Shown here: positions 1,085 through 17,131 of the stretch, piece after piece
Numbering within the stretch: position 1 is the first letter of the stretch
Layout: the number at the start of each line of letters is the position of its first letter
Virus record (IMG/VR): IMGVR_UViG_3300032295_001253
Location: 1-30,393 of that record
Strand: one strand, 5' to 3'
From: a virus
Lineage: Duplodnaviria; Caudoviricetes
DNA length: 30,393 nucleotides
Made by a program: the position numbers and the translations under genes
The notes under the pieces: model-generated
Seen by the model: only the letters and a program-made list of their open reading frames with translations
Told to the model about the DNA's origin: nothing
Databases searched by the model: none

Positions 1085-1112
1085 TAGGCAGTTTAACGTC
1101 ATGCCTAGGACG
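1085..1112 (-). ncRNA. Repeated compact pseudoknot motif, copy 1
   Basis: CGUC-C-UAGGCA-U-GACG-UUAAAC-UGCCUA. Confidence 0.75.
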
Positions 1113-1117
1113 GTTAC

Positions 1118-1351
1118 TTAATTAGCTTCAAGAAAATTTTCTTTAAGCTCTTTAAGTTTCTTTTTCATGTCATTGTGTTCATCAACAATGTCTTCCATGT
1201 ATTCAATTACAAATTCCCTGGCAAAGCCACAGCCACACATAAACTGAACAAAAGCATCAATAATACTTGAGCCAAGATCAGCATTAAATGAAACCTGATA
1301 AGTGGTTTCATCATCAATGTGTTTGAATTCGTAGTGATTGTAAATAGTCAT
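1118..1351 (-). CDS. Hypothetical protein (77 aa)
   Basis: ORF co-oriented with and tightly packed among neighbours. Confidence 0.75.
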   Translation of the reverse strand: MTIYNHYEFKHIDDETTYQVSFNADLGSSIIDAFVQFMCGCGFAREFVIEYMEDIVDEHNDMKKKLKELKENFLEAN

Positions 1352-1356
1352 TGAGT

Positions 1357-2169
1357 TCAGAACGGAGGATCGGAGTCATCAGCCATACTGGTCAGGCCAT
1401 AGCCAGGCAGGTCAGGAAGCGCATTTCCAGTCTGGGCACCCCAGGGCTCAGCGATGTCTTCGGCGGTCTTGCCACCCCACAGACTAGCAACACCTGTGTT
1501 AGATGCAACGGTGGTTTGCGGGTTGATAGGCTTGGACTCATTGGTTCCCTTGGGAGCCAGGGTCATTGATACCAATTGAATCTTGGTTAGGTTCTTTTTC
1601 TCTTTGGTATCTTTATCAACCCAAGAGTCGGTAACAAGTTTGCCCTGGATACTAAGGCCAATACCTTTACGCGTAAAGTTAACAAGCAGTTCCGCATTGT
1701 TCAACTTATCTTCTGCAGTATTAATTGCATAGAAGTTAAACAGATCTGCTTGATTCCTTCCTGTATTAACAGAAAGAGTTTGATTACAGATCATTAAGCC
1801 ATCTGCCGTTGTCTTAAATGCACGTGCATCATTTTGATCAATATCTTTAACACAGCGACCACTAAGAATCACAGTGTTCAGAATTGGAAATGATGTATCT
1901 ACCTGGGTAACAATACCACCTTGCAGTGAATAAGTTTTGGAGTTTAAATCATACCGAAGCTTTGAACCATGAATATAAATCTGTGCACCTGCTGGTACAC
2001 GAGCAAAACGCTCAGCAGCTTTGCCGTAAATACTGAGTTGAATAGGTGTTGGAGCTTTGTTACCAACAGGTGGCAACAACAGATTGCATACGGTAGCAAA
2101 AGAATTTTCGCTAATAGCTTTTTCTTTTGGAACCTCAGTAGTTTGAGCGCAAAGGAATGAAAGATTCAT
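1357..2169 (-). CDS. ssb: Single-stranded DNA-binding protein with two tandem OB-fold-like halves
   Basis: SSB signatures NTVILSGR...KD and NFTRKGIGLSIQGKLVTDSWVDKDT; acidic C-terminal tail DDSDPPF; the N-half has a second copy (IYGKAAERFARVPAGAQIYIHGSKL). Confidence 0.8.
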   Translation of the reverse strand: MNLSFLCAQTTEVPKEKAISENSFATVCNLLLPPVGNKAPTPIQLSIYGKAAERFARVPAGAQIYIHGSKLRYDLNSKTYSLQGGIVTQVDTSFPILNTVILSGRCVKDIDQNDARAFKTTADGLMICNQTLSVNTGRNQADLFNFYAINTAEDKLNNAELLVNFTRKGIGLSIQGKLVTDSWVDKDTKEKKNLTKIQLVSMTLAPKGTNESKPINPQTTVASNTGVASLWGGKTAEDIAEPWGAQTGNALPDLPGYGLTSMADDSDPPF

Positions 2170-2190
2170 TGGATCAAAAGTCAGGTGGTA

Positions 2191-2217
2191 AGGCAGTTTA
2201 ACGTCATACCTAGGACG
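2191..2217 (-). ncRNA. Repeated compact pseudoknot motif, copy 2
   Basis: CGUC-CU-AGGUA-U-GACG-UUAAAC-UGCCU (one U-G wobble). Confidence 0.75.
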
Positions 2218-2227
2218 GAAACAACTA

Positions 2228-2497
2228 TTAAATACTTTGAATAATTTCTTCAGAATTTACAAGTTTTACTACAGTATAGTCAAGTTGTTCTTGTGATTTT
2301 TTTACACGATAAAGATTGCCTTGATATGTAAATAATTCATTACTCATTTTAGTTTTTGCTAAAACTGCATTAAGTTCAGAAGAAATTTCTTCAAATACTT
2401 GCAAAGCTTTTTCTTTTTGCATATGTAAAATAAACACACGTTTCAAATTAATGTCGGCATCAATTCCTTTTGTTTTTGATTTAATTTGATTTGTCAT
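2228..2497 (-). CDS. Hypothetical protein (89 aa, AT-rich)
   Basis: ORF lying between two identical pseudoknot repeats. Confidence 0.7.
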   Translation of the reverse strand: MTNQIKSKTKGIDADINLKRVFILHMQKEKALQVFEEISSELNAVLAKTKMSNELFTYQGNLYRVKKSQEQLDYTVVKLVNSEEIIQSI

Positions 2498-2518
2498 AAT
2501 AAAAGAAAATAAATTGTA

Positions 2519-2545
2519 AGGCAGTTTAACGTCATACCTAGGACG
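2519..2545 (-). ncRNA. Repeated compact pseudoknot motif, copy 3
   Basis: Identical to copy 2. Confidence 0.75.
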
Positions 2546-2550
2546 GTTGG

Positions 2551-2718
2551 TTAACGCTTAGGGTGAAGGCATGCGTCATAAAGCAGCCAATACAACCAAC
2601 CAAGGACAAACCCCTGGGGCCAAGTAAAAGCAAATGCGTACTTGATTGCTACCACGTACAGCGCAAGAGCAAGTATTCCACCAATTGCTTTACCAATTAG
2701 CTCTTTGTTTGAATCCAT
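2551..2718 (-). CDS. Small membrane protein (55 aa, two hydrophobic segments)
   Basis: Translated by hand: MDSNKELIGKAIGGILALALYVVAIKYAFAFTWPQGFVLGWLYWLLYDACLHPKR; ATG abuts the polA stop codon. Confidence 0.7.
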   Translation of the reverse strand: MDSNKELIGKAIGGILALALYVVAIKYAFAFTWPQGFVLGWLYWLLYDACLHPKR

Positions 2719-4539
2719 TTAGTGGGTATCAAGCCAGGTGTATCCTACCTTGGCATCGCCATCAATAGGACAGCGGAATCCAAAGAATTGTTGCGCTGCA
2801 GGGAATGCGTTTAATGCATGACCTTTTAATGTTTCCACAAGGTTTGGTGCACAGCTTAATTGAATTTCGTCATGGATCATGCCTTGTTGTTGCCAGTCAA
2901 CTCCGTATTGATAACCAGCTTCTTCCATTGTTTGGTGCAAACCAATCACAACTTGTTTCATAATTAATGCACCAGAAGATTGCAGCAATACATTCAATCC
3001 TTTAAAGTCAGACCTGCAATACAAAATACGTTTGTCTAATCCATACAACCAGCCGCGATCTTGAATCATCAAAGTAATTTCACTCTTCAATCGTTTAAGT
3101 GCGGGTAGTCCACGCATGAATGAGTTAATTGCATTACTTCCTAGTTGACGCAGAACCTCTTCATCTTTTTCATCTGGATCAATAATAGTTCCAGCTTTTA
3201 AAGATCCACATCCATACAACAATCCATACAACAAACGTTTGCTGATGTCCCTGGTAGCCACACCAAACTTCTCTTGGTTGTATGTATGGATATCAATGTC
3301 AGAGTTGGTTACAACAGAGGCATATTCTCCGTCATCCCAGATGGCAAGGTATCCAGCGAGGCAACGTAACTCAAGTGCTTTAGCGTCAACACCAATGAGA
3401 GACCACCCGTCAGGAGCATGGAACAAGTCTCGACATTCTTTTCCATACGGGGAGTAAGCAGCAGGGACTTGGCCCATATTTGGATTGCGGTGTGCGCACC
3501 TCCCAGTAATGCAACCGTTAGTAATAAGATCGCCGTGGATACATCCAGTGTCATTGTTGACAAGTTTGAGCCAAGCATTGTTGCCATCAGCAATTTGACC
3601 AAGACGTTTCTCAATCAACATATATTCTGCTAACGGTTTAGCTTCTGGATACGGCAACTTCTCAATGACTTCGTCATCAAGAATTGGATTACCTTTCTTG
3701 GTTAATTTTTCAGGTTGCCAATTGTACTTTTGTTTTAAACGATCAGTAATCTGTTGCCTAGATCCAGGGTTAAATTCTTCAACACGTATTTTTTCAAATG
3801 GCACACCTTTGACATAGCCACGAGTTTTGTTGTTTACTTTTGGAATAAATACTTCTTTATGTTCAATAGGTGGAAAGATTTCTTTTAGGTGTGTTGCAAG
3901 TTCCGTTTCTTTTGTTCTGAGACCATCCACCAGATCAAGGCATGCATCAACATCAAAAGGAAAACCTGATCTAATTTGTCTTTCAATTGCCAAAGCAAAG
4001 TCATGCTCCAGCTTGAGCGCTGGTTCCGGATAGCTTTGTTGCTGGATGTGCTGGAATAATTTATAGGTAACTGATACGTCTTGCCTGCAGTAGGCCGCCA
4101 TTTCTTCTGAGTATTCAGAAAAATCTTTGAAGTCAATTTTGTAATCTGATAGACGATAACCCCAAGCCTTGAGCGCTGCTGAACCACACAAGTTCTTTGG
4201 AACTTGCGTATGTTGTTCTGTGTCAAGTTCATAGAGTTTTTCTTTAGGCCAGATGAGTCGAGTACAAATGAGTGTATCAATGATCCGTGCTTCCGTATAA
4301 AACGGATAAAGCTTACGGATCACTGGAATGTCATAGAACAGAATGTTGTGTCCTATTAGAACATGACCGCAAGCCAAATGCTCAAGAGCATCGTCAATGC
4401 GGTCAGGCCCATAAGTAGTAGTTTTGTTTCCGTAGATATCATGGATGACAATGCAGTGAATCTTAGTGACCTTGTCATAAAGATTATCAGATTCGATATC
4501 GAATACAAGCCAACGTTCAATGTCTGAACTTGCCTTCAT
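2719..4539 (-). CDS. polA: DNA polymerase, family A (T7-like, 3'-5' exonuclease plus polymerase)
   Basis: ExoI FDIESD, ExoII GHNILFYDIP, ExoIII YCRQDV; motif A GVDAKALELR; motif B RDISKRLLYGLLYG; motif C HDEIQ. Start at 4539 preferred; 4584 is possible. Confidence 0.97.
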   Translation of the reverse strand: MKASSDIERWLVFDIESDNLYDKVTKIHCIVIHDIYGNKTTTYGPDRIDDALEHLACGHVLIGHNILFYDIPVIRKLYPFYTEARIIDTLICTRLIWPKEKLYELDTEQHTQVPKNLCGSAALKAWGYRLSDYKIDFKDFSEYSEEMAAYCRQDVSVTYKLFQHIQQQSYPEPALKLEHDFALAIERQIRSGFPFDVDACLDLVDGLRTKETELATHLKEIFPPIEHKEVFIPKVNNKTRGYVKGVPFEKIRVEEFNPGSRQQITDRLKQKYNWQPEKLTKKGNPILDDEVIEKLPYPEAKPLAEYMLIEKRLGQIADGNNAWLKLVNNDTGCIHGDLITNGCITGRCAHRNPNMGQVPAAYSPYGKECRDLFHAPDGWSLIGVDAKALELRCLAGYLAIWDDGEYASVVTNSDIDIHTYNQEKFGVATRDISKRLLYGLLYGCGSLKAGTIIDPDEKDEEVLRQLGSNAINSFMRGLPALKRLKSEITLMIQDRGWLYGLDKRILYCRSDFKGLNVLLQSSGALIMKQVVIGLHQTMEEAGYQYGVDWQQQGMIHDEIQLSCAPNLVETLKGHALNAFPAAQQFFGFRCPIDGDAKVGYTWLDTH

Positions 4540-4750
4540 CGCAAACGTAGAGTTCTTCACTGGCAAGGTCGGAGTCATTGTCATTAATCCAATTCAAGAT
4601 TTGTGTTGCGCCAATCCTGTACGGATGACAGAAAACTTTGGCTAAATCCGAATCAGATTCTACAGGAATCAAAACAAAAGAATTGGCTTCTTTGTCTGCT
4701 CGGATGCAGTAGTTTACATTGTTTTTACTTGTGGTAATAACGTAAGGCAT
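4517..4750 (-). CDS. Hypothetical protein
   Basis: ORF with likely start MPYVITT at 4750; the longer ORF-track start runs through a hairpin. Confidence 0.65.
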   Translation of the reverse strand: MPYVITTSKNNVNYCIRADKEANSFVLIPVESDSDLAKVFCHPYRIGATQILNWINDNDSDLASEELYVCDEGKFRH

Positions 4751-4758
4751 AAAAGATT

Positions 4759-4791
4759 TGGGAAAGCCTGTTAATAATACAAGCTTTCCCA
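4759..4791. other. Intergenic hairpin (terminator or processing site)
   Basis: TGGGAAAGCCTGT-loop-ACAAGCTTTCCCA inverted repeat. Confidence 0.5.
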
Positions 4792-4822
4792 CTAAATGCA
4801 ACTATGTCAGCACATCAATATT

Positions 4823-5584
4823 TTACTTTTTGTAACCAGTCCACTTGTTTTCTTTACGTCGCTTGTTCAGGGCTTTTTGTGCGTCAGAGCCAGCGCGTTG
4901 CACATTGTGAACAAGAAGTGCAAACGGCTTGGGACCAAAGCAGTGGGAATCGTCATGGTCAATGTCAAGACCCATTTGCTCAGCCTGTTCTTCTGTGTAC
5001 ACAACATAAGCAACACGATAAAACACCTCTGGATACCTGGGGATCAAGTAATCAAGAGTGCCGCCTACTGATGCGGTTAAGTAAAAGTTATCAGGAATCT
5101 CGTGACGTTTTTCATACCACATACCTAGTGACTTTGTAAAAGCATATAGTTTGAGTTTTGGATTATTACGTGCAACTTGCAACCATGCATTGAAATAAAC
5201 TTGGGTCCAAAAGTCACCTGATTCATGGATGCGCAATAGATCATACTTGGATCTAACTGGTTGTGATTCTTCAATTGATTGTTGAATCAAAGCAACAAGA
5301 GCATCTGTTGGGTTGTCTGAAGTATACATAACTTCTTTGATTAGATCCCAGTTGCGCCAGCGACTGTTACGTACGGCAGGTCTAGTTTCTGCCATAGCAG
5401 CAAAGCAACGGTAGTCTTGCCAAGCTGGACCGTTCTCCTGAGGCAAGTCAGTAATTGTCCCTGTGATACGGTCAGCCAATGTTTTGCACACACCAGCGTG
5501 AGGGCATGAGTAACCAGCGGGCAAGCTAAAGATCAAACGCTTACCAAGCTTGGCGTTACCGGTTGAAAAGTTGAGTAAGTCCAT
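4823..5584 (-). CDS. Phage GP88-like protein (Cys-rich, probable Fe-S / radical-SAM-related fold)
   Basis: GNAKLG..FSLPAGYSCPHAGVC...CFA and RIHESGDF...YAFTKS motifs typical of gene-product-88 family proteins. Confidence 0.75.
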   Translation of the reverse strand: MDLLNFSTGNAKLGKRLIFSLPAGYSCPHAGVCKTLADRITGTITDLPQENGPAWQDYRCFAAMAETRPAVRNSRWRNWDLIKEVMYTSDNPTDALVALIQQSIEESQPVRSKYDLLRIHESGDFWTQVYFNAWLQVARNNPKLKLYAFTKSLGMWYEKRHEIPDNFYLTASVGGTLDYLIPRYPEVFYRVAYVVYTEEQAEQMGLDIDHDDSHCFGPKPFALLVHNVQRAGSDAQKALNKRRKENKWTGYKK

Positions 5585-5618
5585 GGGTTGAATTAAATTG
5601 ATTAATAAAACTAATGAA

Positions 5619-5642
5619 TGAGTTTAAGGACATCTCAGGTCC
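5619..5642 (-). ncRNA. Repeated pseudoknot motif, variant copy 4
   Basis: GGAC-C-UGAG-AU-GUCC-UUAAA-CUCA; stem 1 compensated to GGAC/GUCC. Confidence 0.65.
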
Positions 5643-5650
5643 ATGCAAGT

Positions 5651-5947
5651 TTACAGCATAATCTGTGACTCTCGAAACTGTTCACGACTCATGCGTAATG
5701 TAATTTGATCTCCATTGTCTGGTGTGTCGTTAGGTCCTTGATGAACTAACAACTCCCAAACATGTTCATTGATACGCATAACGTCTCTACAGTATTCAAG
5801 AATAAGCCGGTCTTTGTCTTGTCCTGGTTTATAAGCCAAGACTTTTTTATAAGTATCAAATGGAACATCTTCGTCTTCTTGTGTGTAACACGCAATCCAA
5901 TAACGTGCAGTCTTTTCAGTTTGCTTGGTAGCGGCAAATCCTTTCAT
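5651..5947 (-). CDS. Hypothetical protein (98 aa)
   Basis: ORF with ATG start, co-oriented with neighbours. Confidence 0.75.
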   Translation of the reverse strand: MKGFAATKQTEKTARYWIACYTQEDEDVPFDTYKKVLAYKPGQDKDRLILEYCRDVMRINEHVWELLVHQGPNDTPDNGDQITLRMSREQFRESQIML

Positions 5948-6045
5948 GTTTTGTTGCGTAGTGAACTACATGAATTAAATAAATAACGTACAGTATTTGT
6001 AACAATAGTTACCATTATGAAAACTGGATTTATTATTTACCTAAG

Positions 6046-6088
6046 CAATAAAAAAGCAAAAGAGATTCGAAAAGGAATCGAATCTCTT
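6046..6088 (-). terminator. Probable intrinsic terminator
   Basis: 11-bp stem AAGAGATTCGA/TCGAATCTCTT followed on the minus strand by UUGCUUUUUU. Confidence 0.55.
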
Positions 6089-6129
6089 CATGCCGTCAAA
6101 GCATTAGGTAAACAACCTACTGCAGTTGT

Positions 6130-6435
6130 TTAAGTCCCATAAAGTTGTGCTGTATAATCTTCAAGAATTTGAGGCAACTCAGATTCAAAACACAGGCGAG
6201 CTTGTGCATGCTCACCTGTTGTGTTGTTGTCCCACTTTACTTGACAGTAAGCAGACTCAGTACCATTGCTGTTCTTTTTTTGTCGAATAGCAATAATTGT
6301 TCCATAGCGTTGCGTGCAATTCTTTGCAACAATTTCAGCTTTCCATTTTGAAATGCCTGGAATAAATGTTGCTTTAGGTTTTTCAGCAACGCGATCACCT
6401 GGTTGAAAGCGAATAACTTTTTTGTACTTAGACAT
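6130..6435 (-). CDS. Hypothetical protein (SH3/KOW-like FQPGDRV...VKWD)
   Basis: Likely start MSKYKK at 6435, overlapping the end of the upstream gene. Confidence 0.65.
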   Translation of the reverse strand: MSKYKKVIRFQPGDRVAEKPKATFIPGISKWKAEIVAKNCTQRYGTIIAIRQKKNSNGTESAYCQVKWDNNTTGEHAQARLCFESELPQILEDYTAQLYGT

Positions 6436-6775
6436 GGTTCCACATTTTACGTTTGACAATGCGATAAACAGTTTGAGGATGAATGCCAAATTGTTTGGCA
6501 ATGTCTTTGTAAATTACATTTTGTTCTGCAAGCTCTCGAATCTTCCTAACGTTTTCTTCAAGCAATACAGAACTTCCGTTTGCCTCTCCTTTTTTGACAT
6601 GGTTAACATGAATAGATCCTCCTGGTTTAGCACCACGTTTTTTGAGTGCATACATTTCAATTGTCTTAAATCGTTTGTCGCAATCTAAACATCTGCAGTA
6701 ACGCCAAGTCTCGTTACCTAGATGTTCTGTAGCAGTTACTCGTGTTTGTTTTGAGTTGCAGAAACGACACTTCAT
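6428..6775 (-). CDS. NrdR-type Zn-ribbon fused to a helix-turn-helix; putative transcription regulator
   Basis: MKCRFC..TRV....WRYCRCLDCDKRFKTIE resembles the NrdR N-terminus; C-terminal YKDIAKQFGIHPQTVYRIV is HTH-like; no ATP-cone. Confidence 0.7.
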   Translation of the reverse strand: MKCRFCNSKQTRVTATEHLGNETWRYCRCLDCDKRFKTIEMYALKKRGAKPGGSIHVNHVKKGEANGSSVLLEENVRKIRELAEQNVIYKDIAKQFGIHPQTVYRIVKRKMWNHV

Positions 6776-6829
6776 TTGTTTTCATAACTAGCTTTTGTAC
6801 TTTCAATTGCATCTAGTGATGGTTGTCGG

Positions 6830-7027
6830 TTAATCATTAGCGCCATCCAGCTCAGCGGCGATGGCGAGAATGTTTTTCTCAGTGATACCAAAATACTTAA
6901 GTTCTTGTACAACAGCTCGTAGGGCGGCGGCCATGGCGTAACGGTCTTCATGCTGCAGGGAAGGATCCCATGGACTCTTCCAGTAGGCGTCTAATATTGC
7001 CTGCGCAGCAGGGGAAAGGTTAGTCAT
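6830..7027 (-). CDS. Hypothetical phage protein (LSPAAQAILDA...AAALRA type)
   Basis: ORF overlapping the upstream stop (TAATG). Confidence 0.75.
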   Translation of the reverse strand: MTNLSPAAQAILDAYWKSPWDPSLQHEDRYAMAAALRAVVQELKYFGITEKNILAIAAELDGAND

Positions 7028-7368
7028 TAGTAAGCAATGCGTACAGTAGCAATACCATCTAGAGGTACACCTAATTTATAGGCTGCACCTGCAGATAGAT
7101 CTAGTGAGTTGCAATCACAACGATCAGTTACCGGTACAACCAATGATCGACCTTTGTAACTGACCCGGACTTTGGTCCCACATTCCAACCATGGATGCGC
7201 TGCTGACAAACCCCAGTGTTGATATGTATTACCGCAGTAGGTGATGCGTCCGTGGTACCAGTCGTGATAAACAGTTGCAGTAACTGGTCTTCCGTGACCC
7301 GTACCGTGATGTGCAAATGCTGGTCCTTGCATAAACATTGCAGCAATAAACAGAATGCGTTTAATCAT
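7027..7368 (-). CDS. RlpA-like double-psi beta-barrel lytic transglycosylase with signal peptide
   Basis: ATVY..WYHGRIT.CG..Y....SAAHPWL.CGTKVRV....VPVTDRC...LDLS..AA..LG; N-terminal MIKRILFIAAMF...AFA signal peptide. Confidence 0.85.
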   Translation of the reverse strand: MIKRILFIAAMFMQGPAFAHHGTGHGRPVTATVYHDWYHGRITYCGNTYQHWGLSAAHPWLECGTKVRVSYKGRSLVVPVTDRCDCNSLDLSAGAAYKLGVPLDGIATVRIAY

Positions 7369-7687
7369 CGAGTTGTTCCAGTGCTTTACGAACAATTGAA
7401 AAGTCGTTAATGTCCCAACTTGGGTCTTCTGCTTTATCTAGCAAAGCCAGCGCCTGTTTCTTTAAGCTCGGCGGCTTGGGGCGGCGTGCGGCGCGGAGTT
7501 CTAGTGCAAGACTTTCGCGGAGATCGCGGGCAAAATAATGGCAGCACGCCTCCAGCTCCTGGTCGGCACCGTATCGGGCAGCTTCAATTAACAATTCATT
7601 AATTCCTTTGTTGCAATAATCATGTTGCTCAAGCCAAAGCTGCAATAATTCTGCTGGTGGAATAATGGGGTGTTGTTGATTAGTCAT
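7361..7687 (-). CDS. Hypothetical phage protein (GADQELEAC...RRPKPPSLK type)
   Basis: ORF overlapping both neighbours. Confidence 0.75.
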   Translation of the reverse strand: MTNQQHPIIPPAELLQLWLEQHDYCNKGINELLIEAARYGADQELEACCHYFARDLRESLALELRAARRPKPPSLKKQALALLDKAEDPSWDINDFSIVRKALEQLDD

Positions 7688-8012
7688 TGTTGTTAGTTGG
7701 CTGTTGAATTTTTTCTAGTTGAAGAGCATCTAACAAATATGTTGTTTGATCTTCACCAAGAATCTTAAATGCATCAACAATTAAATCTTTGTTTAGTTCA
7801 TTTGATTTGTAGTAATCATCAAGGATCTCAAGTGCACGTTCGTCACCTGTTGGATCACCAGTTAGTTGTTCAAGAATTTGAGTTGGCATTACATCAACCA
7901 TTGCATCAATTAATTGTTCTTTAACAATTACCCATGTCCATTCTGGAATGTTGTCACATACCAGATCAACAAGATCAAGGTTGATTGCTTTGTTTGGATT
8001 GTTTGAAATCAT
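7680..8012 (-). CDS. Hypothetical acidic protein (110 aa)
   Basis: ORF. Confidence 0.75.
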   Translation of the reverse strand: MISNNPNKAINLDLVDLVCDNIPEWTWVIVKEQLIDAMVDVMPTQILEQLTGDPTGDERALEILDDYYKSNELNKDLIVDAFKILGEDQTTYLLDALQLEKIQQPTNNND

Positions 8013-8014
8013 AG

Positions 8015-8042
8015 AAAAGAAAAAGCCCCCATTACTGGAGGC
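8015..8042 (-). terminator. Possible intrinsic terminator
   Basis: GCCUCC-AGUAAU-GGGGGC followed by a U-rich tract on the minus strand. Confidence 0.45.
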
Positions 8043-8062
8043 CCCTCGCCTTCGTGTGTAGA

Positions 8063-8425: not shown

Positions 8426-8448
8426 GATGTTTAAGTTAAGTGTGAAGT

Positions 8449-8524
8449 TGGTACCTGAGGTGGGATTCGAACCCACGCTGGAGGACTTTTAAGGTCCCTG
8501 TCTCTTCCGCTGGACTACTCAGGC
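8449..8524 (-). tRNA. trnL: tRNA-Leu(UAA), 76 nt, intronless, short variable loop, encoded CCA
   Basis: GCCUGAG/CUCAGGU acceptor; GGGAC-CUUAAAA-GUCCU anticodon arm; GUGGG-UUCGAAU-CCCAC T arm; A73-CCA. Confidence 0.93.
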
Positions 8525-8730: not shown

Positions 8731-8738
8731 TGGTTTGA

Positions 8739-8770: not shown

Positions 8771-8782
8771 CGCCTGTGGGGG

Positions 8783-10516: not shown

Positions 10517-10544
10517 GATGTGTTCAGAGTAAGTTCGTAGTGTA

Positions 10545-10571
10545 GAGCAGTTTAACGTCATGCTCAGGACG
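10545..10571 (-). ncRNA. Repeated pseudoknot motif, copy 5
   Basis: CGUC-CU-GAGCA-U-GACG-UUAAAC-UGCUC. Confidence 0.75.
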
Positions 10572-10576
10572 TTGGA

Positions 10577-10777
10577 TCACCAACGCATTACTTCTTTACC
10601 ATCAACTTTAAAGACAATTTGATCGTCACGATCTTTTAAGTATTCATCCCATGTCATTGTTCGATCTGGCAGAATAACTGGCATTTGTTTTGCAAACCCA
10701 AAAGCAGAGTACACTCGACCTTTGGGTCCACGAACAACCAAATACCAACGCTTGAATTCAATTGAAAAGCCAATCAT
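10577..10777 (-). CDS. Hypothetical protein
   Basis: ATGA overlap with the upstream stop. Confidence 0.7.
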   Translation of the reverse strand: MIGFSIEFKRWYLVVRGPKGRVYSAFGFAKQMPVILPDRTMTWDEYLKDRDDQIVFKVDGKEVMRW

Positions 10778-11034
10778 GAGTCTAAGTTCCAATCAGATGT
10801 GTCGACAAGTTCCCACCGAAGATCGAGGTCAGTAAGATAATTACAGAAGTCATCTTCGCTGGTTGGGAAAGGCAGCTCTGGATCCAACTCAAAAGATGTT
10901 GTGCACAGAGCTGGAGCCCACTCTTCAGGTTCATCGCGAGTTGCTTTGAATAGAAGACGCATGTCTTCCACAAGTGCTGTAACTGTGACATGGATACCAT
11001 TGACGATTGTGTTTTCGATAGCAAGAACTGTCAT
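10774..11034 (-). CDS. Hypothetical acidic protein (86 aa)
   Basis: ORF. Confidence 0.75.
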   Translation of the reverse strand: MTVLAIENTIVNGIHVTVTALVEDMRLLFKATRDEPEEWAPALCTTSFELDPELPFPTSEDDFCNYLTDLDLRWELVDTSDWNLDS

Positions 11035-11037
11035 GAA

Positions 11038-11235
11038 TCAAACCTCTGCTAGTGTTTTGGCTTTCATAAATTGAGACGTGGGACCATACTTAACTACAAG
11101 ATCAGGGAATACGTCAAGAATCTTTTGACGATTTGTTGGATCTGCGTAGCGTAATGCTGTAGCTAGATGGGATACAAATGTACCACCATAAGTTTGCATG
11201 CATTCAGTCATTGCATGGAACTGAGCTGAGTTCAT
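11038..11235 (-). CDS. Hypothetical phage protein (YGGTFV..LA.A...AD..N..KI...FP motif)
   Basis: ORF; start at 11235 or 11256. Confidence 0.75.
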   Translation of the reverse strand: MNSAQFHAMTECMQTYGGTFVSHLATALRYADPTNRQKILDVFPDLVVKYGPTSQFMKAKTLAEV

Positions 11236-11255
11236 AGTTGAGTTGAGATGGGACA

Positions 11256-11283
11256 TGGACAGTTTAACGTCATGTCCAGGACG
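11256..11283 (-). ncRNA. Repeated pseudoknot motif, copy 6
   Basis: CGUC-C-UGGACA-U-GACG-UUAAAC-UGUCCA; stem 2 compensated. Confidence 0.78.
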
Positions 11284-11397
11284 GTATCAATGGTTAGTTA
11301 ATGGATATTGATATTACTAATAGATGGTAGATATTAAGTAACGTAATAGGGATTACCTCGTGGTACTGGCTGTTGCCAGGGGGTTGTAGGGGGATCT

Positions 11398-11592
11398 TTA
11401 GATTATCTTTATATTTCGACGACTTAATCCTGTGCCTGGAATACTGATAGATCCATGTACACCCGACTCGCGTGCGTTGAGTGTTACCTGGAACGGACCA
11501 AGTTTAATTGACTTGGTGAATGATTTAACACCACGTTCTGTGATGTTAAAGCCCGCGATTGTCTTGTCAAAATTAATTGGTGACTTAGTCAT
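11398..11592 (-). CDS. DUF4236-like small basic protein
   Basis: KSIKLGPF...GSISIPGTGLS motif. Confidence 0.6.
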   Translation of the reverse strand: MTKSPINFDKTIAGFNITERGVKSFTKSIKLGPFQVTLNARESGVHGSISIPGTGLSRRNIKII

Positions 11593-11902
11593 CGTTGTTG
11601 TAATCAACAGAGTTAGCAGTAGCAACTACAAATTTCAAGACGAAGTAATCATCATCTCCATACTCTGAAGGATAATATGTAGCATAGAGACCACCAGATG
11701 TTACTTCAGTATCTTTAATAGATGATCGAAGCAAGTGACGAGCCATTGCTTTGAGTCTTGCAATTGATGGCACTGCATGTCCGTTACCTTCAGTGCAGGC
11801 CCATTGCCAGTCAAGTGAAAGCATAACGCATCTAACTTTTTCAAAGTTAAAGTTGTCAATGATGTAATCAATTTGTTCTTCGTGAACTAAAGAGGTAGTC
11901 AT
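11585..11902 (-). CDS. Hypothetical phage protein (IDYIIDNFNFEKV...LDWQW)
   Basis: ORF. Confidence 0.75.
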   Translation of the reverse strand: MTTSLVHEEQIDYIIDNFNFEKVRCVMLSLDWQWACTEGNGHAVPSIARLKAMARHLLRSSIKDTEVTSGGLYATYYPSEYGDDDYFVLKFVVATANSVDYNNDD

Positions 11903-11911
11903 TGTGTTCAG

Positions 11912-12088
11912 TTAGTTAGAGCGAAGCCTGGTTGATTCAACCCAATAATAATCATCAGGACATTCAGTATTCATTTCATCACGGTGTTCAGTGGCTGCTT
12001 CTATACTGTTGTAAACAGCACAGAAACCACAGTCAAGTGATTGAACAATGAATACTTCTGGATCATTGGGTTTAATTGTTATAGTCAT
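11912..12088 (-). CDS. Small hypothetical protein (58 aa)
   Basis: Translated by hand: MTITIKPNDPEVFIVQSLDCGFCAVYNSIEAATEHRDEMNTECPDDYYWVESTRLRSN. Confidence 0.65.
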   Translation of the reverse strand: MTITIKPNDPEVFIVQSLDCGFCAVYNSIEAATEHRDEMNTECPDDYYWVESTRLRSN

Positions 12089-12161
12089 TTTCTAATCAAT
12101 TGATTTGCTATTAAATAACCAAGGATAAAGCAGATGATGAATAACAAGAATGCGCTTATAT

Positions 12162-12380
12162 TCATTTCAAATCATCAGGAAGAAGCATCTGAGTATCTGT
12201 TTCGTCCATGTTTGTCATTATAAACTTTTGTCCATCGGGGGCTACAAAGCCCCCGATAAAACCATTACCATTGCGATCTGCAGCTTCTTTCATGCGAGCA
12301 ACAAATTGCATGGCTTGCAATCGCTGGAAATCTACTGAGTCAGGGATGCGTGGTTTAGGTGAATCGTTTAGTGCTGACAT
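12162..12380 (-). CDS. Hypothetical protein
   Basis: Likely start MSALND at 12380. Confidence 0.7.
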   Translation of the reverse strand: MSALNDSPKPRIPDSVDFQRLQAMQFVARMKEAADRNGNGFIGGFVAPDGQKFIMTNMDETDTQMLLPDDLK

Positions 12381-12517
12381 TGTTTTGAATGATGTGAAGT
12401 AGTTGAATGTTGTTAGCTTATCACCCCCTGTCAAGGGGTGTCACCCCGTTCATGAGTTGTAACACTCACGTTGGGGGTGATGTCTTAACTATTTCTTAAC
12501 CTGTGGTAGACCAGTGT

Positions 12518-12862
12518 TTATCTGGCAGTACCAAGGTTTAGTGTACGAATGCGAGCTGCTTTCTCTTCACGTTTCCGTTTGAAGTACACAGAACTAATCT
12601 GGTCTTCAAACTCAGTTAGTCGTTTGGTCAAGCAACTGATTGTCTCTTGGTACCACTCAGTTTGATTATTAATTAAATCAGGGTCTTTACTCTGGATAAT
12701 TTCATTTAGTCGTTGTTGAAAATAATCAATACGAGCTTTGAATAAATTAGTGATAAGCCACCATTCATCTTCATGAAGATCTGTCCAAGTAACAGTGTGC
12801 AATCCTTGTGGATAATCAGGGGATGCTCCTTTGGTTTTGTCAGCAGCTTTAGTTCTTGCCAT
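12518..12862 (-). CDS. Hypothetical protein (114 aa)
   Basis: ORF. Confidence 0.75.
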   Translation of the reverse strand: MARTKAADKTKGASPDYPQGLHTVTWTDLHEDEWWLITNLFKARIDYFQQRLNEIIQSKDPDLINNQTEWYQETISCLTKRLTEFEDQISSVYFKRKREEKAARIRTLNLGTAR

Positions 12863-12907
12863 GATGTTTGAAGTAAATAAGATTTAATTCTGTGAAATTA
12901 AATTGAA

Positions 12908-13234
12908 TTACCGATGTGCTTCTTGATGTTCTTTCCATGCTGCTGAATGCATCTCAGCCATGGTGATAGGTGGTTCACCATATGAGTCTTCGATTTCATA
13001 AGGCCATTCGATTGCTTTCTCAAGTAGATCGATGGCCTCCAGTAGTTGTTCTTCCGAACCATAAGGAAGATCGTTGTACCCAAGTGGGCGTTCGTCTTCT
13101 CGTTTAACGATAGCCTTAAGTTCTTTGATCATAAGTTCAATGCGTTTGTCGTCGTGCATAGGAATAATTAGTTCCTTGTCTCTACCAACGACTTGATAAA
13201 CTTTTGGTTCGAAGTGGAGTTCAGTCTGTGTCAT
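12908..13234 (-). CDS. Hypothetical protein (108 aa)
   Basis: ORF starting 22 nt downstream of pseudoknot copy 7. Confidence 0.75.
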   Translation of the reverse strand: MTQTELHFEPKVYQVVGRDKELIIPMHDDKRIELMIKELKAIVKREDERPLGYNDLPYGSEEQLLEAIDLLEKAIEWPYEIEDSYGEPPITMAEMHSAAWKEHQEAHR

Positions 13235-13256
13235 AGTGAGTACATAGTTAGTTTGT

Positions 13257-13284
13257 TGAGCAGTTTAAAGACATGCTCAGGTCT
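13257..13284 (-). ncRNA. Repeated pseudoknot motif, copy 7
   Basis: AGAC-C-UGAGCA-U-GUCU-UUAAAC-UGCUCA; stem 1 compensated to AGAC/GUCU. Confidence 0.78.
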
Positions 13285-13292
13285 AGCAAAGG

Positions 13293-13559
13293 TTATTGAA
13301 AAGAATTCTCAACAACGTTTGCAGGTTTGGTCTCTGGATCTTTGATGATCCAACCACCGTAGTGAACGGTGTTACGTTCAACGCTAATTAATTGTTTCTC
13401 TTCTAGTACTTCCAATGCTTTGAGAAAAGTATTGGACCTAGATTGAAACATCATTAGCTCTGGTACAAGACAAGCTTTACCTTTGTACTTCTGCTTGTGA
13501 TGCAGATAGTACTGATAGATATTGCGTTGAGTTGTAGTAAGACCCACTGGTTTAGTCAT
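13293..13559 (-). CDS. Possible winged-helix (LexA N-terminal-like) DNA-binding protein
   Basis: LTTTQRNIYQY...FLKALEVLEEKQLISVER pattern; CDS likely, function tentative. Confidence 0.45.
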   Translation of the reverse strand: MTKPVGLTTTQRNIYQYYLHHKQKYKGKACLVPELMMFQSRSNTFLKALEVLEEKQLISVERNTVHYGGWIIKDPETKPANVVENSFQ

Positions 13560-13642
13560 TGATGCATTAGATGTTTCGTATTGGCACATCAGCCAATACA
13601 TGGATAGTATTGGCTATTTTGATGTGCACTTTAATACTTGAC

Positions 13643-13999
13643 TTAGATCAGGCCGAGAATCCTAAGCCAGGAGTCTGGGTGATCGCTTTCGACTTCGTCT
13701 CCTGCTGGGGTATAGCAGATGCTATCGAACGAATACTCTTCGATGTCTTCGTTACTTGGTACGTCGTACCAGCCCGTGAGCTCGTCCTTCTCCTCTGCCG
13801 AGTAGTTGTCTTCGGCTGGGATCCAGAAGCATCTGAGGACTCCCTGCTTGTCTCTGTAGACGTTACCAGTGCAGGGGATGGATCCTTTAGGTGCATTTTG
13901 GAAGTCGCACTCTGCCTGGTACTGCTGCTGCCCTTCTTCTTCGTCGAAGGGTTCGTAGCCGAAGGTTGCAGCGATTTCTTGGGTGATGGGGTGAAGCAT
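13643..13999 (-). CDS. Hypothetical acidic protein (118 aa)
   Basis: ORF with C-terminal VESDHPDSWLRILGLI. Confidence 0.75.
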   Translation of the reverse strand: MLHPITQEIAATFGYEPFDEEEGQQQYQAECDFQNAPKGSIPCTGNVYRDKQGVLRCFWIPAEDNYSAEEKDELTGWYDVPSNEDIEEYSFDSICYTPAGDEVESDHPDSWLRILGLI

Positions 14000-14088
14000 G
14001 AGATGAGTTCTGTGATAAGGATTGAGATGATAACAATGATGTGTAATATTACATCATCATTATATTGTTGGGTTTGAAGTTGTTTCAT
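13648..14088 (-). CDS. Possible overprinted membrane-anchored S/T/K-rich protein
   Basis: ATG overlaps the upstream TGA; hydrophobic N-terminal helix; overlaps 13643-13999 in another frame. Confidence 0.4.
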   Translation of the reverse strand: MKQLQTQQYNDDVILHIIVIISILITELISCFTPSPKKSLQPSATNPSTKKKGSSSTRQSATSKMHLKDPSPALVTSTETSRESSDASGSQPKTTTRQRRRTSSRAGTTYQVTKTSKSIRSIASAIPQQETKSKAITQTPGLGFSA

Positions 14089-14246
14089 CAGAAGTGAACA
14101 TTGGGTAGTGTGTGAATTGATTTGTCAACACCAAGCCATTCCTCTGGAACAGACTCGCGCATGGCTTGCTCCTGTTCATAGGCTTGGTCCGCCATAGCAT
14201 CAAGTGCATCAGACGGAATGTCATTCTCAAATTCGTTTGAATGCAT
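14088..14246 (-). CDS. Small acidic hypothetical protein
   Basis: Likely start MHSNEF at 14246. Confidence 0.65.
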   Translation of the reverse strand: MHSNEFENDIPSDALDAMADQAYEQEQAMRESVPEEWLGVDKSIHTLPNVHF

Positions 14247-14277
14247 GATTTGTCGGAAGTTGACTGCAGTGTTTGTA

Positions 14278-14304
14278 GAGCAGTTTAACGTCATACTCAG
14301 GACG
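14278..14304 (-). ncRNA. Repeated pseudoknot motif, copy 8
   Basis: CGUC-CU-GAGUA-U-GACG-UUAAAC-UGCUC. Confidence 0.75.
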
Positions 14305-14315
14305 TGTCCTAGTTG

Positions 14316-14681
14316 TTACGGATAAGGAATAAAGTTTGATTCCTTACCTGTTAACTGCTGGATCGTTACACAATCTTCTTCTATTTCTTCGAATGATTCA
14401 TATTCATTTGTCTGATCTTCGACGACTTCGCAACCGACGTCCTCCAGTTCATTAACGAACTGAGCCCATGAGTTGGCATTGCCATAAACATGGGCATAAC
14501 GTCCGGATGCATCAGCGATTAGTGCAACGTATGTCATAGGTTGAGTTTCAGTTAGTGTGAATGGTCTTTGATCTGCTGCCATGACAAGTGCATGGACAGC
14601 AATTAGTTCTCTAGTTGATAGCTCACCGTTGTGTTTCCACTTGAGTACCGTGTGATTCAGGTAAGTATCTCGTTGCATCAT
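14316..14681 (-). CDS. Hypothetical protein (may really start at internal MTYVALI)
   Basis: ORF; the internal ATG is preceded by an A/C-rich leader-like tract. Confidence 0.6.
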   Translation of the reverse strand: MMQRDTYLNHTVLKWKHNGELSTRELIAVHALVMAADQRPFTLTETQPMTYVALIADASGRYAHVYGNANSWAQFVNELEDVGCEVVEDQTNEYESFEEIEEDCVTIQQLTGKESNFIPYP

Positions 14682-14859
14682 CTAGGTTAAATGTGGTGAC
14701 ATCATAACCAAGCATTGCACCGGCAGTGATGGCTGCGATGCAAAAGGTAATGAGCACACCAAAGACTTTGCCAACGGCATTATCCATGTAATCACCTTGT
14801 TGATTATAGGTATCAAGTTGAATGTAACGATTGATACCAAGCTTGATGATTTGTTTCAT
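14623..14859 (-). CDS. Small membrane protein (78 aa)
   Basis: One hydrophobic segment VFGVLITFCIAAITAGAMLG. Confidence 0.65.
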   Translation of the reverse strand: MKQIIKLGINRYIQLDTYNQQGDYMDNAVGKVFGVLITFCIAAITAGAMLGYDVTTFNLDDATRYLPESHGTQVETQR

Positions 14860-14943
14860 GGTGATAGGTCTGAGTAAAGGGAATCAACCTAACGGTTGAT
14901 GGGCGACTAGTATGATTGTACTAGTAGTGATGGGAATGGGGGA

Positions 14944-15006
14944 GCAGGATGTTAAGTCCTGCAGAAAACCCACTCATCACAATGGATGAGAAGGGTTAAG
15001 TGCAGG
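14944..15006 (-). ncRNA. Double-hairpin repeat family, copy 1
   Basis: CCUGCA..AACCC[stem-loop]GGGUUUUC-UGCAGGA-CUUAACA-UCCUGC. Confidence 0.55.
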
Positions 15007-15008
15007 AA

Positions 15009-15251
15009 TCAATCCATCATATGTTCTTGTTCCCACTTGAGAAGTGCACGATTAAGATCGACTTTCTTCTCGAGAACAACAATAAATGGAATTAGATCCT
15101 GGAACTGAACTAATCCGTCTTGCCATTGGTAAAAGATTTTGAGTGCAGCTTGACGTTGACTCTCAATCTCTTGGTCAATAGCAGGTGCATCTCGACGAGC
15201 GAGAAGCCTGGCGTCTTGGATCAGAAGTTGTTCAACACTTGCAGGAGACAT
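15009..15251 (-). CDS. Hypothetical protein (80 aa)
   Basis: ORF. Confidence 0.75.
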   Translation of the reverse strand: MSPASVEQLLIQDARLLARRDAPAIDQEIESQRQAALKIFYQWQDGLVQFQDLIPFIVVLEKKVDLNRALLKWEQEHMMD

Positions 15252-15279
15252 AGTCCTAGGTGGGTTGAGTTGAATTGAG

Positions 15280-15330
15280 TGCAGATGTAAAGTCTGCAGA
15301 AAACCCTGGTGTTACTCAGGGTTAGTTGCA
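15280..15330 (-). ncRNA. Double-hairpin repeat family, copy 2
   Basis: UGCA..AACCCUG-loop-CAGGGUUUUC-UGCAGA-CUUUACA-UCUGCA. Confidence 0.55.
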
Positions 15331-15334
15331 AACA

Positions 15335-15583
15335 TCAGTCTGCCATTGCCATGCGCTGCTCAAATTCGCATACCTGGCAATAGTTATAGAACTCTTGCAT
15401 ATGAGTGTGCATCTCACTCATACTCGTGGGTATACCACTACCAAGAGTTTGGACATTGCGGTCTATCCAGTCGGGATTACCATCCCAACCGTCGACCTGT
15501 TGTTCGTAATGCAACTGGGTTGATTCACCGCCGTGCCATACAACACGATCGGTTGAGTTGATTTGAGGTTGATAGATCATCAT
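15335..15583 (-). CDS. Hypothetical protein (82 aa)
   Basis: ATGA overlap with the upstream gene. Confidence 0.75.
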   Translation of the reverse strand: MMIYQPQINSTDRVVWHGGESTQLHYEQQVDGWDGNPDWIDRNVQTLGSGIPTSMSEMHTHMQEFYNYCQVCEFEQRMAMAD

Positions 15584-15747
15584 TTGACTTGAGTTTCAAT
15601 GGTCATGAATGCATCCTTAGGCATGATTACTGCCGCAATGCGGACACGATACTCATGCACCTTGGATGCAATAGTCTCTTTCGTTGTATCAGTCTCCAGC
15701 TTGGTAGCTGTCAACTTAAGGATGTTAGCCAGATTCTTACGAATCAT
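15580..15747 (-). CDS. Small hypothetical protein (55 aa)
   Basis: Likely start MIRKNLA at 15747; the track start lies in the tRNA-like element. Confidence 0.7.
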   Translation of the reverse strand: MIRKNLANILKLTATKLETDTTKETIASKVHEYRVRIAAVIMPKDAFMTIETQVK

Positions 15748-15757
15748 GGTTCCATAA

Positions 15758-15826
15758 GCCACTCTCAGTGAGTGGCAATAACTGGACCAGGGTTTGCACC
15801 TGGTCACCCGCTTTTACGGATCAGTT
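15758..15826 (-). ncRNA. tRNA-like minihelix element C plus downstream hairpin
   Basis: AACUG-AUCCGU-AAAA-GCGGGU-GACCAGG-UGCAAAC-CCUGGUC-CAGUU-A, then GCCACUC/GAGUGGC. Confidence 0.75.
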
Positions 15827-16108
15827 GTTTTCATAATCGCTATAAACTGTGTGTATAAATTCTTCTTCGCGTTGACGCAAATACTTGATGATTCCTTTAA
15901 TCTCATCAAGTGTTAGGTGACCGGTTGGATCAGCTAATCCCGGAAACCACACTTCGTATGTGGTCTCTTGACCTGGGTCGTTAGCTGCCATTAGTCCTGA
16001 ACCTCGCGGTCCAGTAACAATGGATATGCCTCCGACCAAGTCATCTGAGTAAACCAGGCGATAACCACCTGGTATATCATGTGGCTTCCAACCTGTAGTC
16101 AGATCCAT
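15821..16108 (-). CDS. Hypothetical protein
   Basis: GGAG ahead of ATG 16108; alternative start at 16120. Confidence 0.75.
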   Translation of the reverse strand: MDLTTGWKPHDIPGGYRLVYSDDLVGGISIVTGPRGSGLMAANDPGQETTYEVWFPGLADPTGHLTLDEIKGIIKYLRQREEEFIHTVYSDYENN

Positions 16109-16126
16109 GGATAACTCCATGTGTGT

Positions 16127-16200
16127 GCGGTACCCATCTCCGCTGTGGGTAATAACTGGGCAGGGGATTGCACCCTGCCTCCCGCTTTAACGGATCAGCC
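16127..16200 (-). ncRNA. tRNA-like minihelix element A plus downstream structure
   Basis: GGCUG-AUCCGUUAAAGCGGGA-GGCAGGG-UGCAAUC-CCCUGCC-CAGUU-A-UUACCCACAGCGGAGAUGGGUACCGC. Confidence 0.75.
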
Positions 16201-16413
16201 GTAGTTCTCGGGAAGCTCTACAAGCTCCGCAAGAACTTGGTGTTGCAGCTCGCGTTCGCCAGCAATCTGCAGACCCCATGCGGCGATCTGTAGTGCTTGC
16301 TCACGGCTTAGTAGCTGCGAATAGCCTGACTCCATCCAGAACTGGATGAGATCGTAGGCCGTATCAGCTAACTCTTCCCTGGTAGGAAGCGTAGCTGTAG
16401 TAGTGTTGGCCAC
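16195..16413 (-). CDS. Hypothetical protein (72 aa)
   Basis: GGAG + GTG start at 16413 (MANTTTATLPTREEL...). Confidence 0.7.
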   Translation of the reverse strand: MANTTTATLPTREELADTAYDLIQFWMESGYSQLLSREQALQIAAWGLQIAGERELQHQVLAELVELPENYG

Positions 16414-16429
16414 GGTGTTCTCCGTGTGT

Positions 16430-16503
16430 GCGGTACCCATCTCCGCTGTGGGTAATAACTGCCGGTGGGTTTGCACCACCGGACCCGCTTTAACGGATCA
16501 GTC
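16430..16503 (-). ncRNA. tRNA-like minihelix element B plus downstream structure
   Basis: GACUG-AUCCGU-UAAA-GCGGGU-CCGGUGG-UGCAAAC-CCACCGG-CAGUU-A-UUACCCACAGCGGAGAUGGGUACCGC. Confidence 0.75.
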
Positions 16504-16593
16504 GGTTACGTAACCTATTACGAAGGCTGCAATAAATATTGCAACCAGTGAAACGTAAGGTGCGATAACCTGACCGGCTGGTGTGTAGTCCAC
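16498..16593 (-). CDS. 31-aa single-pass membrane microprotein
   Basis: AGGAG SD + GTG; MDYTPAGQVIAPYVSLVAIFIAAFVIGYVTD; its stop falls in element B, as for neighbouring genes. Confidence 0.65.
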   Translation of the reverse strand: MDYTPAGQVIAPYVSLVAIFIAAFVIGYVTD

Positions 16594-16609
16594 AGGAAAC
16601 TCCTGTTGT

Positions 16610-16675
16610 GCGGTACCCATCTCCGCTGAGGGTAATGCCTGGGAAGGGAGTCGAACCCTTCCTGCACCGTCAGGC
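16610..16675 (-). ncRNA. tRNA-like minihelix element D (canonical T-loop) plus downstream structure
   Basis: GCCUG-ACGGUGCA-GGAAGGG-UUCGACU-CCCUUCC-CAGGC-A-UUACCCUCAGCGGAGAUGGGUACCGC. Confidence 0.75.
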
Positions 16676-16683
16676 GTTAAGAC

Positions 16684-16863
16684 TTAAAACGGAAACACTT
16701 CTATCACAAGCAGATCTTGCTCCCAATCTTCAAAAGATTGGAAGTATTGAACCGCTTGTTCTTCTGTGTCAAAAATGCGCTCACTTCCTTGGAAGTACGC
16801 ATCTTCAAAGACATAATCCTTGTTGCCGGTGTAAACTCTTTTGACCTGAACTGAATAAACCAT
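16684..16863 (-). CDS. Small hypothetical protein (59 aa)
   Basis: Translated by hand: MVYSVQVKRVYTGNKDYVFEDAYFQGSERIFDTEEQAVQYFQSFEDWEQDLLVIEVFPF. Confidence 0.7.
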   Translation of the reverse strand: MVYSVQVKRVYTGNKDYVFEDAYFQGSERIFDTEEQAVQYFQSFEDWEQDLLVIEVFPF

Positions 16864-16885
16864 TGTGTTAAGTTGAATAGGACAT

Positions 16886-16910
16886 GCTGCGTTTAACGTC
16901 CAGCTTGACG
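16886..16910 (-). ncRNA. Repeated pseudoknot motif, variant copy 9
   Basis: CGUC-AA-GCUG-GACG-UUAAACG-CAGC. Confidence 0.6.
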
Positions 16911-17127: not shown

Positions 17128-17131
17128 ACAG

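Follow-up and report, generated by a model that had tools for sequence, protein, structure and literature searches.

Why does one viral contig carry the same short motif nine times, each time ahead of a gene in its early and replication region? The window studied here is the whole of a 30,393-nucleotide (nt) viral contig (IMG/VR record IMGVR_UViG_3300032295_001253), for which a preliminary description, made from the sequence alone, had reported nine minus-strand copies of a compact RNA pseudoknot. Our data support the common form of this element, which we call type I, as a 28-nt H-type RNA pseudoknot with a predicted fold. Judged by its bases and pairings, it is a close relative of coremin, an exoribonuclease-resistant RNA (xrRNA) of plant viruses, and by analogy with coremin we consider it probable that the pseudoknot halts 5'-to-3' decay by host RNase J and stabilises the cistrons downstream. 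All nine copies were found with the coordinates and stems first described, between genes and on the coding strand (Table 1), and a relaxed descriptor run over the window found no copy beyond them. Seven of the nine share one register: a 4-bp stem 1, a loop C, a 5-6-bp stem 2, one free base and NNAAAC. A strict pseudoknot descriptor gave 7 matches in the window, every one of them on the minus strand; 100 dinucleotide shuffles averaged 0.18 matches each, and none exceeded 1.

In order to see which parts of the motif are held by pairing, we used pattern scans of IMG/VR that released stem 1, stem 2, loop 3 or the hairpin loop one at a time. When stem 2 was unconstrained, all five positions paired in 93 of 129 contexts and at least four in 113, and with stem 1 unconstrained 73 of 123 were wholly Watson-Crick and another 26 contained one G-U pair. 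Among distinct 28-mers, three stem-1 and four stem-2 pairs lay above all 1,000 column shuffles; of the 88 distinct 28-mers in the stem-1-free set, 86 had Watson-Crick bases at the two inner stem-1 pairs (means after shuffling, 48 and 37) and 86 were closed by C-G. This closing pair is nearly invariant, as is the junction pair between a loop A and U19, kept as A-U in 76/90. An alignment of 75 rows showed two-sided changes at 8 of 10 pairs and a covariation score of 0.44 compared to 0.19 when shuffled, the rows being the 7 window copies and 68 of 238 filtered motifs, a selection that leans to structure. On the coding strand, G-U is commoner than A-C in the unfiltered sets (68 vs 29 and 23 vs 4), an asymmetry suggestive of RNA. 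By itself stem 1 has little stability (-1.6 to -2.9 kcal/mol), and its conservation makes better sense if the second stem is taken into account. Unbiased covariation of the two stems thus supports the reading as an RNA pseudoknot, as does the G-U over A-C asymmetry; in stem 2 the covariation concerns the inner pairs, while the outermost pair shows none (33/90 Watson-Crick, shuffled mean 36).

The same scans bear on whether the motif is instead a promoter or another DNA site, with TAAACT as a -10 box. The hexamer fits TAnnnT, the copy at 11256 was called with a 9-of-12 sigma-70 match and a promoter is annotated at the motif in one staphylococcal phage record. However, the first T of the hexamer is kept in only 49 of 98 cases, no base is conserved at -40 to -1, and a DNA site accounts neither for the covariation of both stems nor for the excess of G-U on the coding strand. 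A promoter is the explanation that we find hardest to credit.

Two of the nine copies depart from the register first assigned to them. The copy at 5619-5642 has a 7-nt hairpin loop and pairs as UGAG/CUCA; most relatives have a type I copy ahead of similar gene starts, and one has the same variant. Stem 2 of the copy at 16886-16910 comprises 3 bp and not 4, as the base presumed to make the fourth pair is U in 34, C in 26 and G in 20 of 80 homologues. This copy represents a conserved subtype present in 99 viral stretches, mostly with no close upstream open reading frame (ORF) end, several of them directly ahead of tRNA-like or other structured RNAs. With its 3' arm left free, AGC was kept at 79, 79 and 76 of 80, facing GCU. 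The subtype also occurs on contigs labelled GVMAG (L912, L914, L918, L931, L939, L961, L962, L976, L982), often ahead of tRNA-like RNAs, and another contig with that label (L251) has tandem type I copies.

The preliminary description had been unable to match the element to a named family. That holds for Rfam, where the search it had proposed returned no family overlapping the motif in window positions 1-18000, in one copy alone or in 40 other loci. It fails for the literature, where a near-identical element is known from eukaryotic RNA viruses (PMC10520033). Coremin, or xrRNA-C (Flobinus et al. 2018, PMC5869530; Dilweg et al. 2019, PMC6546385; 2023, PMC10520033 and PMC10321173), is built from a first hairpin of 4 bp, whose loop reads YGAD or YGNNAD, the spacer UUAAACUAC and a second hairpin, and stalls Xrn1 (PMC10520033); the stalled RNA in turn represses Xrn1 (PMC5869530). 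Its variants are the YGNNAD hexaloop form and a Watson-Crick form, xrRNA-WCC. The window copies contain a coremin-like 4-bp hairpin followed by UUAAACU. In both elements the first hairpin is closed by C-G and its pairing outranks its sequence, the loop ends in A-D, the spacer reads NNAAACU and a loop A pairs with U19, a register that its authors proposed for coremin (PMC10321173). Both also occur just past stop codons or between genes.

The closest agreement lies in the spacer. With loop 3 left free, 98 of 116 matches kept its 6-nt length and 11 were longer by 2 nt. Of the 98 six-nt loops, 45 and 49 have U at coremin positions 13 and 14, which are thus variable; 97, 98 and 98 retain A15-A17, and 95 retain C18. 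The UUAAAC loop, described at first as constant, is therefore constant family-wide only in AAAC and the next U, its first two bases varying freely. In coremin, a change of U13U14 to AA and an insertion of UU are tolerated and changes at A16, A17, C18 and U19 are not (PMC6546385). The positions left free by the phages are those that coremin tolerates and the fixed ones are those that it needs, which indicates that natural conservation mirrors coremin mutagenesis.

The two elements differ in their carriers, which for coremin are eukaryotic RNA viruses and for the phage form DNA phages with many copies ahead of translated genes, and they differ in the hairpin loop. A variable-loop scan gave 129 contexts, of which 69 had octaloops, 38 hexaloops and 4 tetraloops. 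Type I has an 8-nt loop with U and not G at position 2: G was found there in none of the 69 octaloops, 62 of which end in A-D, and no window copy has YG. The first loop base, a pyrimidine in coremin, is C in 8 of 9 window copies; every type I collection pattern fixed this C, so that any count for the family would be biased. Position 20 is G in 94% of type I copies and pairs to the loop, a value partly fixed by the search patterns, and the A20 of coremin is lacking. Among the hexaloops in other DNA phages, 26 of 38 fit YG..AD, the Xrn1-resistant consensus, and 25 of these 26 have A20; this form was matched in Enterococcus, Lactobacillus and Synechococcus phages. Type I further has a canonical 5-6-bp stem 2 in place of a G-A pair. 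A second hairpin downstream was found at 0 of 5 window copies in a clustered set and at 12 of 111 in S-EIV1-like loci, with folding energies close to those of shuffles. As both the loop G and the second hairpin are absent, the window form is best classed as a variant of coremin and not a member. The likeness covers about 20 bases, which appear too few to separate shared ancestry from convergence.

We found no publication that places coremin-like elements in phages; the supplementary listings of Weinberg 2017 and PMC10690425 may include it as a candidate without a name. In PMC10520033, the available text describes BLAST searches of RNA viruses only, and the words 'phage' and 'bacteri' do not occur in PMC10321173.

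Several other known systems resemble the element. Luteoviral frameshift pseudoknots, those of beet western yellows virus and potato leafroll virus (PMC10321173), have the same short stem 1, single-C loop 1, one unpaired junction base and A-rich loop 3, but the phage copies lie outside coding sequence. Recoding by frameshift or readthrough was rejected for the family, since the flanking genes stand in no fixed frame relation (34/32/28 of 94) and a slippery-like heptamer lies upstream in 5/345. The STAXI RNA motif (RF01728; Weinberg et al. 2010, PMC2864571) is also a small pseudoknot that recurs close to ssb and DNA-handling genes on mobile elements, but it consists of two or three tandem units of another sequence, while the window copies are dispersed; its model gave no match in the window at E up to 10, and the identity was dropped. 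Pseudoknots that impede scanning by RNase E (Richards and Belasco 2023, PMC9943677) are likewise compact structures that shield downstream RNA from 5'-dependent decay, yet these reflect a general size effect with no conserved sequence.

The element is widespread. By pattern, we estimate that it occurs in about 740 to 2,000 IMG/VR stretches, and BLAST of two window copies matched cultured phages of Staphylococcus, Lactobacillus, the Roseobacter group, Rhizobium, Mycobacterium and Synechococcus as well as crAss-like phages. Six BLAST matches that were inspected keep the fold, some with variant loop-3 bases: phiETA, where the copy follows a head gene; SIO1, after ribonucleotide reductase; Labelle, ahead of a tRNA; S-RIM4; cr7_1; and Vibrio phage D456. 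An intact copy was also seen in Pectobacterium phage PM1. The AAAC-U core was absent at both BLAST-matched sites in a Rhizobium and an Escherichia phage, and 2 of 19 plasmid matches cover 80% of the query. In S-EIV1, five copies occur in the 45 kb examined, three with a differing stem 1. As a side observation, in L461, L470 and L512 (Saprospira, Veillonella and an Oscillatoriaceae metagenome-assembled genome (MAG)) the motif lies between apparent CRISPR repeats, as if captured as a spacer.

This distribution bears on the earlier suggestion that the copies form a regulon bound by one phage protein, in the manner of the T4 gene 32 translational operator. One copy does precede ssb, as had been stated, and the same is true in S-EIV1; the multi-copy layout would also suit an operator. 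However, carriers span siphoviruses, podoviruses, crAss-like and T4-like phages of several host phyla, in which the same element stands before unrelated genes, near a head gene and before tRNAs, and a near-identical element exists in eukaryotic RNA viruses. The T4 operator, in contrast, is confined to the leader of its binding protein's own gene, while here 1 of 9 copies is ahead of ssb. With such a spread over unrelated phages, a single phage regulator cannot explain the element, and we regard this form of regulation as very unlikely; a host-wide binding protein is possible.

The position of the element relative to genes was determined in 345 flank-clustered instances, of which 320 had enough flank and 301 an upstream ORF. 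Among the 301, the distance past the upstream stop was exactly 5 nt in 56 and 3-15 nt in 158; it was 0-3 nt in 2, and 6 overlapped the ORF. A peak at 4-7 nt past the stop was seen again in three separately gathered sets (39/103, 30/79 and 21/69), and the next ATG was less than 12 nt away in 6 of 270. By a rough method of calling ORFs, which misreads one window copy, 152 of 219 instances lay between co-directional ORFs, 17 between convergent and 14 between divergent ones. In the window itself, seven copies stand 5, 10, 5, 8, 5, 8 and 11 nt after a sizeable upstream ORF and all nine lie 20-34 nt before the next likely ATG, in agreement with the preliminary description.

One interpretation of this placement is that the element is directed at ribosomes. 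The wall at 4-7 nt past the stop agrees with the size of the ribosome footprint, and the knot could stand at the leading edge of a terminating ribosome and block scanning re-initiation, or it could recruit ribosomes (for example through protein S1) to leaders that have no Shine-Dalgarno sequence. Cyanophage leaders contain 5% G and are Shine-Dalgarno-like in 3/69, and coremin blocks scanning ribosomes in eukaryotic lysates (PMC10520033). A roadblock would also have to clear the footprint, however, so the spacing does not discriminate between the two. Furthermore, Shine-Dalgarno-like sites occur in 25 of 39 close leaders of the cross-phage set, and the copies ahead of tRNAs and the DUF2800 RNA do not precede start sites. 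As the principal function of the element, an action on ribosomes seems unlikely to us.

Some copies lie next to other structured RNAs. Rfam places a Pistol ribozyme (L484:234-326) and a hammerhead (L414:1447-1526) immediately 3' of the pseudoknot, and a rough pattern finds hepatitis delta virus (HDV)-like cores after 4 of 345 copies, with HDV-like loci among L306 and L467. At such loci, 5' trimming and self-cleavage would free an RNA of about 30 nt. In L523, L478, L499 and L486 the pseudoknot lies directly ahead of the DUF2800 RNA motif (RF02960), to which it may contribute a missing 5' module. In the MAGs L517, L522, L491, L469 and L444, four of which are titled Deltaproteobacteria or Syntrophaceae, conserved upstream sequence is joined to the motif, possibly forming a larger RNA element; RNase J was found in none of the five.

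The ribozyme neighbours would suit a 3'-end element, which would cap the upstream mRNA against PNPase or RNase II or function in pausing or weak termination. Spacing from the upstream stop is also sharper than spacing to the downstream start, and a U-rich tail follows 65 of 320 copies. In the window, by contrast, the copies have no U-tract and none is called a terminator, while two of them, and most copies of the 16886 subtype, have no close upstream ORF end. Moreover, the conserved bases are those that coremin needs for 5'-3' resistance. We give a 3'-end role a small chance of being the main function, and it may, like a ribosome-directed role, coexist with a roadblock to 5'-3' decay.

In the roadblock model, the nine repeats would act as protein-free obstacles to 5'-to-3' decay of long early and replication transcripts. 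Decay would begin once the RNA is cut upstream or its 5' end is activated, and RNase J of the host would follow behind the last ribosome to translate the upstream gene until it halts one or two bases ahead of stem 1. The message left for the downstream gene would start with a structure, and its unstructured leader of 20-34 nt would still be usable by ribosomes. The longer stem 2 of the phage form is predicted to take over the stabilising job of coremin's second hairpin, which its four extra canonical pairs would replace. We infer in this way that the knot folds in vivo, that a nuclease, RNase J, stalls at it and that the phage benefits. A flavivirus xrRNA blocks RNase J1 in vitro (PMC5760640), and RNase J of Synechocystis has 5' exonuclease activity (PMC12464536).

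The hosts show a bias in the same direction. Genomes with GTDB matches to one motif pattern were sorted by stem-1 pairing, and RNase J (TIGR00649) was found in 42 of 52 with a fully paired stem 1, in 11 of 18 with 3 of 4 positions paired and in 17 of 45 chance or ambiguous matches (fully paired vs control, Fisher p 2e-5). The control comprises 37 chance matches (9 with RNase J) and 8 ambiguous ones (all 8 with RNase J); the paired set leaves out the CRISPR-spacer-like L461 and L470 and the same-MAG duplicate L457, and many GTDB rows are MAG contigs that may be mis-binned. All 28 named Bacillota were RNase J positive. RNase J is rare in beta- and gammaproteobacteria (PMC3997798), and in 5,426 E. 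coli genomes the two window copies gave 0 and 1 match, the latter weak (E 6) and in a coding sequence. The earlier idea of an mRNA-stabilising roadblock has thus gained a coremin xrRNA relative and a correlation with RNase J-bearing hosts; the function stays a predicted one.

Several observations count against a roadblock to RNase J. The window copies miss two defining features of coremin, and ordinary frameshift pseudoknots of similar size do not stall Xrn1 (PMC10321173), so the fold alone is not sufficient. The host association is dominated by Bacillota; outside them it is 14/24 vs 14/42 (p 0.07). Intact copies occur in the crAss-like phage cr7_1, Vibrio phage D456 and Pectobacterium phage PM1, from groups without RNase J. 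RNase J passed the cut-off in 0 of 41 genomes in the order of G092 (Segatella) and 0 of 61 in that of G013 (Lacimicrobium), and was not found in the motif-bearing Deltaproteobacteria/Syntrophaceae MAGs L517, L522, L491 and L444. Lastly, where a self-cleaving ribozyme follows a copy directly, cleavage would leave that copy at a 3' end. In hosts that lack RNase J the same knot may instead hinder RNase E scanning (cf. PMC9943677). Four sequencing runs gave 0 raw reads on a phiETA-type locus; RNA-library contigs of four runs cross the motif, and contigs show neither ends nor levels.

Judging from its proteins, the source virus is an S-EIV1-like cyanophage: the family A DNA polymerase is 74% identical to that of Synechococcus phage S-EIV1 and the ssb product 70% identical to its counterpart. 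The left 17 kb, encoded on the minus strand, form the early and replication region, and the right part contains plus-strand genes including terminase. A second repeat, of 81 nt, has a predicted multi-stem fold with a T-loop-like hairpin and a separate 3' hairpin and gave 7 matches in related loci. It had no Rfam match near the cut-off. It looks like a tRNA-like or c4-like RNA, and it could serve as a processing site feeding RNase J.

Table 1. Pseudoknot copies and other features of the window (distances in nt).
Feature	Position	Strand	Structure or remark	Upstream	Downstream
Type I copy	1085-1112	minus	4-bp stem 1, C, 6-bp stem 2, U, UUAAAC	5 past stop of ORF 1118-1351	20 to ATG of ORF 3-1064 (354 aa, open end)
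Type I copy	2190-2217	minus	5-bp stem 2 including one U-G pair	10 past stop	20 to ssb
Type I copy	2518-2545	minus	same sequence as copy at 2190	5 past stop	20 to ORF 2228-2497
Variant copy	5619-5642	minus	7-nt loop, stem 2 UGAG/CUCA; like Watson-Crick coremin register	8 past stop	34 to ORF 4823-5584 (phrog_1392)
Type I copy	10544-10571	minus	5-bp stem 2	5 past stop	27 to ORF 8783-10516 (577 aa, phrog_16315)
Type I copy	11256-11283	minus	6-bp stem 2	nearest listed ORF end 114 off	20 to ORF 11038-11235
Type I copy	13257-13284	minus	stem 1 AGAC/GUCU, 6-bp stem 2	8 past stop	22 to ORF 12908-13234
Type I copy	14277-14304	minus	5-bp stem 2 including one U-G pair	11 past stop	30 to ORF 14088-14246
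Distinct subtype	16886-16910	minus	6-nt loop AAGCUG, 3-bp stem 2 GCU/AGC		22 to ORF 16684-16863
Single-stranded-DNA-binding protein gene ssb	1357-2169	minus	phrog_44	copy at 2190	
Family A DNA polymerase	2719-4584	minus	likeness to S-EIV1		
tRNA-Leu(TAA)	8449-8524	minus	amid small early genes		
81-nt repeat, four copies	15747-15827, 16121-16201, 16424-16504, 16604-16684	minus	mostly starts at stop codon		

In the coremin and xrRNA literature compared here, xrRNAs are known from eukaryotic viruses only. Our broadest proposal, which we hold tentatively and slightly doubt, is that one pseudoknot fold serves as a cross-kingdom exoribonuclease roadblock, employed both by DNA phages from many phyla and by RNA viruses of plants, fungi and the sea. 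The phage form would then be the first bacterial xrRNA family, scattered through operons so that host RNase J is halted, and perhaps also tied up, and stable sub-messages are carved from long transcripts, and with its full stem 2 it would be a hairpin-independent minimal xrRNA that reveals the unsolved structure of coremin. The coremin papers, in their available text, call its pseudoknot unelucidated; the phage copies give natural covariation for the coremin register and a canonical form suited to crystallography, which makes this structural question testable. If true, the roadblock would bring to phage biology a level of mRNA control that needs no protein. It would also offer a compact, portable means of stabilising mRNA in bacteria that have RNase J, cyanobacteria and Bacillus among them.

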